A DNA stretch of 64,000 bases from Hormiphora californensis (lineage: Eukaryota; Animalia; Ctenophora): positions 2,356,001-2,420,000 of the forward strand of contig CM035362.1 in NCBI GenBank assembly GCA_020137815.1, written 5' to 3'. The position numbers were made by a program, and so were the translations under genes. Of this stretch, positions 18,201-24,001 are shown piece by piece (the first letter of the stretch is position 1; every line of letters starts with the position of its first letter). The notes under the pieces were generated by a model. The model did no database searches. It was not told the origin of the DNA and was given only the letters and a program-made list of their open reading frames with translations.

Positions 18201-21200
18201 CTTTTCTCACCTGATGCCCAAGTGGATCTTCTAAAATTAGTAACTGTCCATATTTGGGTGAAGTTTGATCGGTATCCCCTTCGAATTTATCAGCCTCGCC
18301 GCTCCCTTCTTCCTCAAATTCTGCTCCTTCATCAACAAAACTGTCTGCTCCTTCATCAAAACTTCCATCGCCCACCACCTCCTCTTTCTCCGCTTGTTCA
18401 CGCTGTAGAACAGCAAGTGAACTGTTTATTATGTTTTCAACCATTATCCTCGCAAACGCTTCCACGGTCTGATATGGTGGAAAATTAGGGTAATTTAAGT
18501 CCATAAATCTCCAAAATTAAAGAAAGATATCAAACCCTTTCTAGGAGTGGATCTAACCCTAAAAATAACACTCCCTAAAACACCATCATTACCATTTCTT
18601 CATCGTTCAGTTCCTCAACACCACTATCAGTTGTCATGGAAACCTCGGTTATGACGCTACTAATAATCCCTGTTACGTACTGATCAGCAAACTGGTATAC
18701 ATCCTCAAAATCTGCAACTGATTCTCCCTTATCAGATGTAGCGTCTTCATCTATACGACCTTTAGGTAGAATTGAGTCATGTATGCCTCTCCAGAGATAG
18801 GTACTGAGGTTTTGGTGGGAACCTTTTAAATAGTAAACCATGAACCTCAGGTTAGATGAAAAAAGGTCATGATTGAAAATAAAAACGATGGAAATTTAAA
18901 CATAAATACCAATCGTTTCATTACCTTCATCATTATCATCATCATCGTCATCATCATCTTCGTCATCATTATCGTCATCTTCATCATCATCTTCCCTCTG
19001 ACTGAGAGACATGAAAACCTGCAGAAAGAACATAACACTGTTATGACCGTTATCAGACCCCTTCCCATGTCATAATAATTATATTCCTGTCATCATATCA
19101 CTCCCAATTCCCACCAACGATTTATTACCGGAAGCTTTTTAAAACTCTCCCAATTCTCTCAATTCCCTCTCTCAATTCTCTATCTTTCCATCTTTCTCTC
19201 CCACCCTTGTCTCTTCTTTATCTATCTGTCTACCTCTTTGTCGCAACCCTCCCAAAAATCCCCTTTGCCCGACATGCCCGTATAAGTGCATGTCATTTAA
19301 TATGATAATAATGATGATAATGAACTAACTGTTTCACCGCGCCCCACGAAAAAACATATCACAGAAACTAACCTCGGCAACAACATTTTCAACAAGATTA
19401 TCAGCATACGCTTTCAGTTCCTTCTTCATCCCACTCTCCTCATCACCCTTCCTCTCCTTCGTTTCACTCTCACCCCCATGACCCCTTTGGGTGGTTGGGG
19501 GTTCCAGGGGGGCAGGGGGAACAGGGGAGATGTCGCTTGATGATGGTAGGTAGGATATCATCTCAATCTCAAAGTTTAGGTGCTCGCTCGGTTCACTAGA
19601 ATGGGGAGAATGGATGATAGATATGGAGGGAGTCAATAATCAGGGGTGAAATACTTAATAGATCTCTAGAGCTTGCAAACTGGCATATCCCAGATGAAAA
19701 TACTACTTGAATAAATCAATCAACAAGAAAGAAAAAACGAAGAATAAAGATAAAGAAGTTCATTATAATACTCAGATCATATCAAAGGAGAAACAAATAT
19801 CAGAGTAGAGAATAAATATCAATCATTTATATCCCGATCATTCAATTTCTAATTTGTCAGGCGATATTGGAAGAACTTTGAAGTTCTTATAAGGTTACAA
19901 AAAAGCTAATAGGGGTTTACCTATTTTTAAAACGAGGGGAGACTCCAGGAGAGAAAAAATGAAAGGGGTAGGAAGAAAAAAAGGAATTTAAAACCTAGTG
20001 CAATTATATCTAAAAATATCTAACTATCATCACATCATTTTCCCTCCCGTTCTTACTAGAATATTCTCTATGTTTCACACAAATTCTCAAATACAGTCAG
20101 ACCACGATTTACCAGCCTAAACCTTTCCCCGAGCATCCCGGTAAATCGGGGTCCAACTGTAATAGCAAAACACAGCGAAAAGGGAGCTTACTAAATTCAC
20201 TAAAACATCCCACAAAACTATATAACTCCCCACATTTAAGAATTAAGTTGATAACTAAATAGTTTTCGTATTTAAACCACTCTCATATATATAATTCCCT
20301 CTCTCACCTAAGCTCGTGGCCAAAAGATCGCTGCCGGCGAATCCTCCTTGCTTCCGCGGGAACTATCGGCGTGAATCTGCAAAGATAACGGGATCTGGGA
20401 TCCGTGAGTATATTGGAAGAGAGCGGGAGAGGGGAGGAGAGATATAGATAAAGAGAGGTAGATAGATAGATAGATAGATAGAGAGAGAGAGAGAGAGAGA
20501 GAGAGAGAGAGAGAGAGAGAGAGAGAGAGAGAGAGAGAGAGAGAGAGAGAAATGAGGGGGTAGGGGAGAGATTTTATACCTGTCACGACAATGACTTTGC
20601 CTCCGTAACCTCACTTCCTCTCGTTTTTGTTTTTCCAGCGATTTCTCAGAGTAAAAGTCATTCAAAACTATGGTGGGGGGATCGATAAGTTGTAAACTAA
20701 TTTTAACAACGTTACCAAATATCATGGTAACAATATTGTTCCTTTATTCTGTGTCACTTACCCTGAGACACTAGTGCATCAGCAAATGAGTTGACATCTT
20801 CCTCGACAGGAGGTGTATCCGAGGTGATATCTGAAATGGTTACCATGGTAACATGCTAGCAAGGTTGACATTGTTACCATAATTTTAAATTTTTTCCCTG
20901 CCCGGGTGCAAACAATTGAAACTTTATGAGGCGTGTGCGGCTATAAACTGTAACACACGGCAAAATTTGTTTTATATCGGCCGCACGTATTGAACGGGGA
21001 AACTGGAGAAATTGAAAAATCTGTTCTGCGTTTTGTTCAAAAATTCTCATTGGATGAGTTGAATGATAAGCCGACTTTAGGGCAGGGAAACTCAGCATTA
21101 TGGGTACATAATGCAAATAATTCTTGTTCCCCTAGAGGACCTGACTCTACCCGTACTAACGTGGAGAAAATAATTCTAATTTTTTTGCTTTTTTAAAAGA

Positions 21201-24001: not shown

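Follow-up and report, generated by a model that had tools for sequence, protein, structure and literature searches.

The question raised by this locus is whether ctenophores possess a single chain in which several PKA-anchoring helices are joined to a RhoGEF of the Asef/collybistin type. An answer requires a gene model, an account of what the helices are likely to bind, and a decision on whether helices and SH3 domain belong to the same transcript.

The gene model and its five helices

In the window, by which we mean the whole 64,000-nucleotide stretch of Hormiphora californensis DNA that was analysed, a reading of both strands combined with a splice-site listing yields a minus-strand chain of 33 exons that runs from 24001 to 2655 and contains 1316 codons without a stop. 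All of its introns have GT donors (32/32) and AG acceptors (32/32), and the chain ends at an open phase-0 donor (2655) after the SH3 exons. Exon frames are open in 50 of 96 cases, in a chain whose boundaries were picked by eye with the frame in mind rather than blind. Because an upstream exon likely precedes the chain, with its donor at 24725, the N-terminus is probably complete. Splicing from this donor to an acceptor at 24022 (minus strand) may add ten in-frame codons, with an M-C-R start, before the ATG at 24001.

The nearest proteins are two gene models from Pleurobrachia bachei: P0001, which corresponds to exons 10-14, 21, and 25 and contains errors, and P0002, which corresponds to the SH3 exons. 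Junctions 12-13 and 13-14 are common to P0001 and our model. Among proteins of up to 2000 amino acids, a query with exon 12 gave a single orthologue in 30 candidates (P0001), a query with exon 32 gave one in 5 (P0002), and the P0002 SH3 domain found no fuller orthologue in 55 candidates. The parts of the gene are listed below in the order of transcription.

23905 to 24001, minus strand: coding part of exon 1, with the ATG at 24001 and an RRxS site at 23941-23927
23532 to 23667, minus strand: exon 2, with an RRxS site at 23653-23639
22599 to 22478, minus strand: helix 1 (aa 124-141, F-V start), split between exon 4 (22647-22588) and exon 5 (22519-22478)
20786 to 20639, minus strand: helix 2 (aa 169-186, F-A start), split between exon 7 (20830-20762) and exon 8 (20667-20580)
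20605-20591, minus strand: RRxS site
19408 to 19001, minus strand: helix 3 (aa 292-309, Y-A start), split between exon 10 (19595-19373) and exon 11 (19018-18925)
18691-18638, minus strand: helix 4 (aa 379-396, F-A start), within exon 12 (18822-18593), best conserved
18456-18403, minus strand: helix 5 (aa 416-433, F-A start), within exon 13 (18468-18211)
6500 to 17635, minus strand: exons 14-30, a disordered Pro/acidic tract with Y[DE] motifs and two RRxS sites (14140, 6569)
4560 to 4622, minus strand: exon 31, joined by splicing to the SH3 exon in the model
2655 to 3240, minus strand: exons 32 (3240-3098) and 33 (2735-2655), an acidic linker and the SH3 domain (3175-2655)

All five amphipathic helices described in the initial annotation are present in this model, and the statement that three of them form only across exon junctions holds for helices 1, 2, and 3. 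They lie within the interval 18211..22647 that had been given for the whole feature; the RRxS sites at 14140 and 6569 and the SH3 domain, 15 kb downstream, fall far outside it. An [FY]A start had also been attributed to the helices, which is correct for helices 2 to 5 and not for helix 1, where the start is F-V. The consensus of type I AKAP helices (PMC12083921) calls for F or Y at position 1 and, with hardly any exception, Ala at position 2; its hydrophobic face comprises positions 2, 5, 6, 9, 10, 13, 14, and 17. Position 1 is F or Y in 5/5 helices, position 2 is Ala in 4/5 (Val in helix 1), and positions 5, 6, 9, 10, 13, 14, and 17 are hydrophobic in 7/7 cases in helices 3 and 4 and in 6/7 cases in helices 1, 2, and 5. 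The least typical end belongs to helix 2, with F13, Y14, and K17. Acidic linkers of 20-105 residues lie between successive helices, the one in exon 11 being poly-Asp.

Such a series is rare in comparison with shuffled sequences. The FA-type pattern, which was composed after the helices had been seen, has 4 matches in the model versus a mean of 0.0035 in 2000 shuffles, and a looser AKAP pattern has 5 versus 0.5. In six-frame translations, the FA-type pattern occurs at 3 of 65,918 positions in the window, all 3 being helices of this gene; in 119 unrelated loci, 188,667 positions gave 10 matches. An AF2 model of P0001 depicts coil with isolated, unpacked helices at helices 3-5, although this single-sequence prediction is weak (mean pLDDT 36, pTM 0.20).

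Candidate phosphorylation motifs, the SH3 domain, and the limits of the gene

The five RRxS sites reported earlier are all found in the model sequence, and RRx[ST] is enriched there, with 5 occurrences versus 0.9 in shuffled sequences (p 0.0025). A second class of motif was absent from the initial annotation: the exons 14-30 tract holds 14 Y[DE] motifs between aa 629 and 1129 (16495-6510, minus strand), among them YEN, YDN, YDIP, YEVP, and YELI, while the helix region is devoid of them. Over the whole model there are 15 occurrences of Y[DE] versus 8.2 in shuffled sequences (p 0.01), 5 of Y[DE]N versus 0.33, and 5 of Y[DE][DENIV][ILVP] versus 0.6, for patterns that were selected after the sequence had been seen. 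We take the tract motifs to resemble SH2-binding sites, as in SH2-binding scaffolds. They flank the longest intron, intron 26, with 11 before it and 3 after it.

The assignment of the SH3 domain to the Asef/collybistin type was borne out by its top PDB matches, collybistin (ARHGEF9) and Asef (ARHGEF4). With the P0002 SH3 domain as query, the top six PDB rows are ARHGEF9 or ARHGEF4 (E 1.6e-9 to 3.8e-7, the next family following at 1.4e-5); with exon 32 alone the top five rows are, and the domain matches SH3_2 in Pfam. In the Asef/collybistin family a DH-PH module follows the SH3 domain, and by analogy one most probably lies here beyond the window. No RhoGEF or DH match was found in the 22 minus-strand frames of bases 1-2654, left of the SH3 domain, once repeat-dominated frames had been excluded. 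A GC-rich frame at 293-51 was ruled out as a DH start on account of its purine-rich acceptor and the lack of a Pfam match. The APC-binding consensus, XGGG[D/E]X-phi-phi (PMC4860839), has no match ahead of the SH3 domain in the 1316-aa model. An acceptor sequence is duplicated ahead of the first SH3 exon (3278 and 3240, minus strand) with a C run between the copies, and the SH3 frame is available from 3240 only.

Whether helices and SH3 domain share a transcript can be approached through contigs of run X1. These are 80-99% alike to the window and none is 99% alike, which marks their source as a relative; that they derive from RNA is a guess. The contigs join exon 5 to exon 8 and, with 65 intervening letters, on to exon 10; they also join exon 21 to exon 25. 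A loose end at 4562 runs on from exon 31 into letters whose translation, GRKSEDEES, resembles the beginning of exon 32, and a loose end at 13919 is loosely exon 26-like (best elsewhere in the window, 17/30). None of the listed joints crosses exons 26-31, and exons 27-30 have no contig cover at 80% likeness, which proves nothing.

On this evidence we lean, with some reservation, towards one transcript, a long isoform that extends from the helices to the SH3 domain. The competing arrangement is two genes or non-overlapping isoforms, namely a stand-alone AKAP/tyrosine scaffold made of exons 1-26, or running as far as the candidate exon at 3805 with its terminal stop, next to an Asef-type RhoGEF of its own whose start would be an ATG at 7752 or at 3512. 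Several features of the locus would fit it. The ATG at 7752 lies ahead of the exon 27 acceptor, in frame with exon 27 and open into it, and read-through of exon 26 meets a stop. The ATG at 3512 opens a candidate first exon (3512-3477, minus strand) whose 13 residues are identical to the start of P0002, and a stop-ended candidate exon at 3805-3658 (minus strand) lies just before the SH3 exons. In P. bachei the helices and the SH3 domain are in separate models, P0001 and P0002, though both are error-ridden. Intron 26 contains an intronless frame on the same strand. Against a split, genes nested in parallel within others are reported to be frequent in Hormiphora, a pleurobrachiid (PMC8527503), the exon phases are unbroken across all suspected split points, tyrosine motifs occur on both sides of intron 26, the relative's exon 31 is spliced to a start that resembles the SH3 exon, and short and long isoforms may coexist. 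We regard this split arrangement as unlikely, if worth keeping in view.

Several further observations concern the same region and its neighbours. The candidate exons 3805-3658 and 3512-3477 make SH3-less and short GEF isoforms possible. The frame inside intron 26 (9638-8697, 313 codons) looks seven-transmembrane-like by eye and has an NPxxY-like end; it lacks an ATG at its start, has a candidate acceptor at 9598, and had no match in Pfam or PDB. Members of a short repeat family with internal palindromes, likely a miniature transposon, occur at 6700-6800, 11790-11890, 13500-13680, and 20120-20170 and are covered at high depth by many X1 contigs. A neighbour on the plus strand, starting near 25700, is arranged head to head with the gene; it is a very large multi-exon gene with cysteine-rich repeats of the C-P-x-G-x-Y-C type (about 25700-64000), in which a same-strand gene with four LDL-receptor class A repeats and a GPCR-like end is nested (49252-52609, plus strand).

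Conservation and predicted docking of the helices

In comparison with P0001, helices 3-5 are identical at 53 of 54 residues, the lone mismatch being an alignment-edge artefact, and the linkers at 284 of 337, a contrast that is inflated by indels. Both halves of helix 3 are present in P0001, and helix 5, for which this is the sole homologue, is identical in it. A query with the region of helices 4 and 5 against 1.84 billion representatives returned four short fragments, all of them read-throughs of an exon 12 homologue and all with the 3' intron in the same position; this search did not return P0001, and its failure to find long proteins therefore carries little weight. A metagenome scan for helix 4 loci gave 161 pattern matches, of which 0 were confirmed.

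Helix 4 could be compared across four lineages (the window, P0003, P0004, and P0005, with near-duplicates excluded). All nine positions of its face are hydrophobic throughout (9/9), position 1 keeps the F or Y of the consensus and is invariant in 4/4 lineages, and positions 3, 4, 7, and 8 are variable. In the most distant fragments, P0005 and P0006, position 2 is Ile, giving an F-I start. The most invariant stretch covers positions 10-25, the end of the helix and its tail, rather than the FA start, and for this reason conservation around helix 4 may be driven by another partner. The tail itself, MTTDSGV (18637-18614, minus strand), had gone unmentioned in the initial annotation and is invariant in all homologous fragments. 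It is a putative second linear motif beside helix 4, and two kinds of short motif look similar to it, the DSG phosphodegron and the dynein light chain site.

The initial annotation had proposed modelling or overlaying each helix with dimers of PKA-R or of other D/D domains. A complex was predicted for helix 4 with a stand-in partner, an invertebrate PKA-RI docking domain drawn from metagenome contigs (Pfam RIIa, E 2.7e-14). Folded with the RI D/D dimer, a 33-residue helix 4 peptide scored 0.48 versus 0.02 for the best of three controls, with contact agreement of at least 85% and partner pLDDT of at least 68; the controls were unrelated proteins rather than other amphipathic helices, the D/D domain came from another animal, and alignments were unused. 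In a calibration that covers no peptides, 51 of 78 solved pairs attained the mark applied to such folds, as did 2 of 108 mismatched ones; for eukaryotes the figures are 39/65 (71/105) solved versus 2/126 unrelated pairs. Only 5 of 78 solved pairs passed with a score of 0.60 or under, whereas every mismatch that passed (4 of 180) did so in that range. Given that similar complexes have been solved, that a stand-in served as partner, and that no amphipathic helix was among the controls, the pass shows likeness only, and it lends weak support to docking. Docking domains that are PKA-RI-like but divergent, with 37-41% identity to that of L050, also occur on the metagenome contigs L031, L036, and L065.

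An AKAP-type reading of the helices thus agrees with the published consensus and with the conservation, and weakly with the complex fold of helix 4; the F-V start of helix 1 and the F-I start of P0005 and P0006 depart from it. Judged from motif and model, the five helices probably dock D/D dimers, and if they do, there is a strong expectation that the partner would be a PKA regulatory subunit and not some other D/D protein. AKAP helices are, however, bound by non-kinase D/D dimers as well, and members of the superfamily predate PKA anchoring (PMC8339350, PMC12083921), which gives substance to an alternative in which the helices dock ROPN1L/SPA17-type R2D2, R1D2, or DPY-30 dimers and have an architectural function, such as one in ciliated comb cells. 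The F-I and F-V variants break the RI rule, as this alternative would allow, and the fold pass of helix 4 cannot tell which D/D family member binds. However, the FA mark is present on 4/5 helices and is tied to RI's flanking helices (PMC12083921, excerpted text). The enrichment of RRxS sites also speaks for a kinase partner, and the SH3 domain and tyrosine motifs would suggest cortical signalling rather than an axoneme. We consider non-kinase docking improbable.

Amphipathic helices may also be ligands of a more generic kind, binding another helical-bundle partner, a membrane, or each other. Helical-bundle partners of this sort include those of vinculin or FAT type, and a tyrosine tract together with a RhoGEF would suggest adhesion sites. 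Database searches are compatible with such a role: the helix exons matched no Pfam family at E up to 10, P0001, P0003, and P0005 matched no AKAP family in Pfam at E up to 1, a PDB search with exon 12 did not find an AKAP peptide, and a helix profile likewise found none in the PDB, its sole row being a spidroin N-terminal helix (E 0.11). Generic binding is nevertheless hard to reconcile with the strict 4-residue spacing of hydrophobic pairs and with an aromatic-Ala start that recurs four times over. The acidic separation of the helices and their unpacked state in the low-confidence AF2 model, as well as the weak D/D pass of helix 4, likewise point away from it, and we give it only a slim chance.

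A proposed mechanism and comparison with known systems

Of the multivalent AKAP-RhoGEF originally proposed, the multivalent AKAP-like scaffold is likely, on the strength of motifs and models, and the fusion, bridged only in part by the relative's contigs and not across exons 26-31, is plausible in a tentative sense. Our favoured overall reading, itself held with caution, is a long, mostly disordered scaffold in which five acid-flanked helices would each dock a D/D dimer, most likely that of PKA type I regulatory subunits. The scaffold would probably form an N-terminal extension to an Asef/collybistin-type RhoGEF. Each helix would fold upon binding the D/D groove, so that a single chain could gather several PKA holoenzymes, and cAMP would release catalytic subunits close to the RRxS sites that the scaffold itself carries. 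Once phosphorylated on tyrosine, the Y[DE]xx motifs would recruit SH2 adaptors. In the Asef/collybistin family, an SH3-autoinhibited DH-PH module acts on Cdc42/Rac, and the PKA and phosphotyrosine inputs could tune such a module here.

The broadest form of the idea is more doubtful. It would have ctenophores, the first-branching animal lineage, independently joining a five-site type-I-selective AKAP to an Asef/collybistin RhoGEF, with a phosphotyrosine tract between them, and so clustering as many as five PKA holoenzymes at an activator of Cdc42/Rac long before vertebrates. RI-selective FA-motif and dual-helix AKAPs are placed at the vertebrate base in a 2025 survey (PMC12083921), which records three AKAPs in sponges. 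Ctenophores are unmentioned in the excerpts of PMC12083921, PMC12203939, and PMC8339350; for A-kinase anchoring in ctenophores the open-access literature yielded only unrelated work, and it yielded no prior description that combines AKAP, amphipathic helix, and ARHGEF4. If the helices are what they appear to be, the presence of four or five in one ctenophore chain would make multivalent type I anchoring independent or much older, and lineage-specific AKAPs of this kind would be invisible to homology searches that start from human proteins. If they are joined to an Asef-type GEF, cAMP would have been coupled to the activation of Rho-family GTPases a second time, independently of AKAP13.

Among known anchoring proteins, the closest likeness is to SPHKAP/SKIP, AKAP11/AKAP220, smAKAP, and AKAP3/4, which have helices with an F/Y-A start and hydrophobic residues at positions 5, 6, 9, 10, 13, 14, and 17, more than one helix, and a disordered chain (PMC12083921). 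These type I or dual-helix AKAPs have two helices in contrast to the five found here, and no sequence homology is detectable. The first atlas match, si:dkey-171c9.3 (0.75), fell below lead level and was set aside. This protein is presumably AKAP-like, and a paper on it was not found in the literature. For the tyrosine tract, the comparison is with p130Cas/Dok-type scaffolds, which we assume to have a similarly disordered tract with many Y-D/E-x-x motifs; homology was not found, and the likeness is one of composition only.

The SH3 domain, with its AEALWDH-type start and its top PDB matches, resembles that of ARHGEF4/Asef and ARHGEF9/collybistin, with which SPATA13 also belongs. Unlike Asef, the chain described here has no APC-binding consensus, and ahead of its SH3 domain lie about 1260 residues that contain the AKAP-type helices and the tyrosine motifs. 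AKAP13 has a single RII-type helix. In AKAP13/AKAP-Lbc, PKA anchoring and a DH-PH RhoGEF are combined in one chain (PMC5345129 and PMC4232260), whereas the DH-PH module here is only predicted. AKAP13 belongs to another GEF subfamily, the RhoA-directed Lbc type, and the SH3 domain of the ctenophore chain points elsewhere. Convergence with AKAP13 is a reasonable supposition, and AKAP13 would be a functional analogue only.
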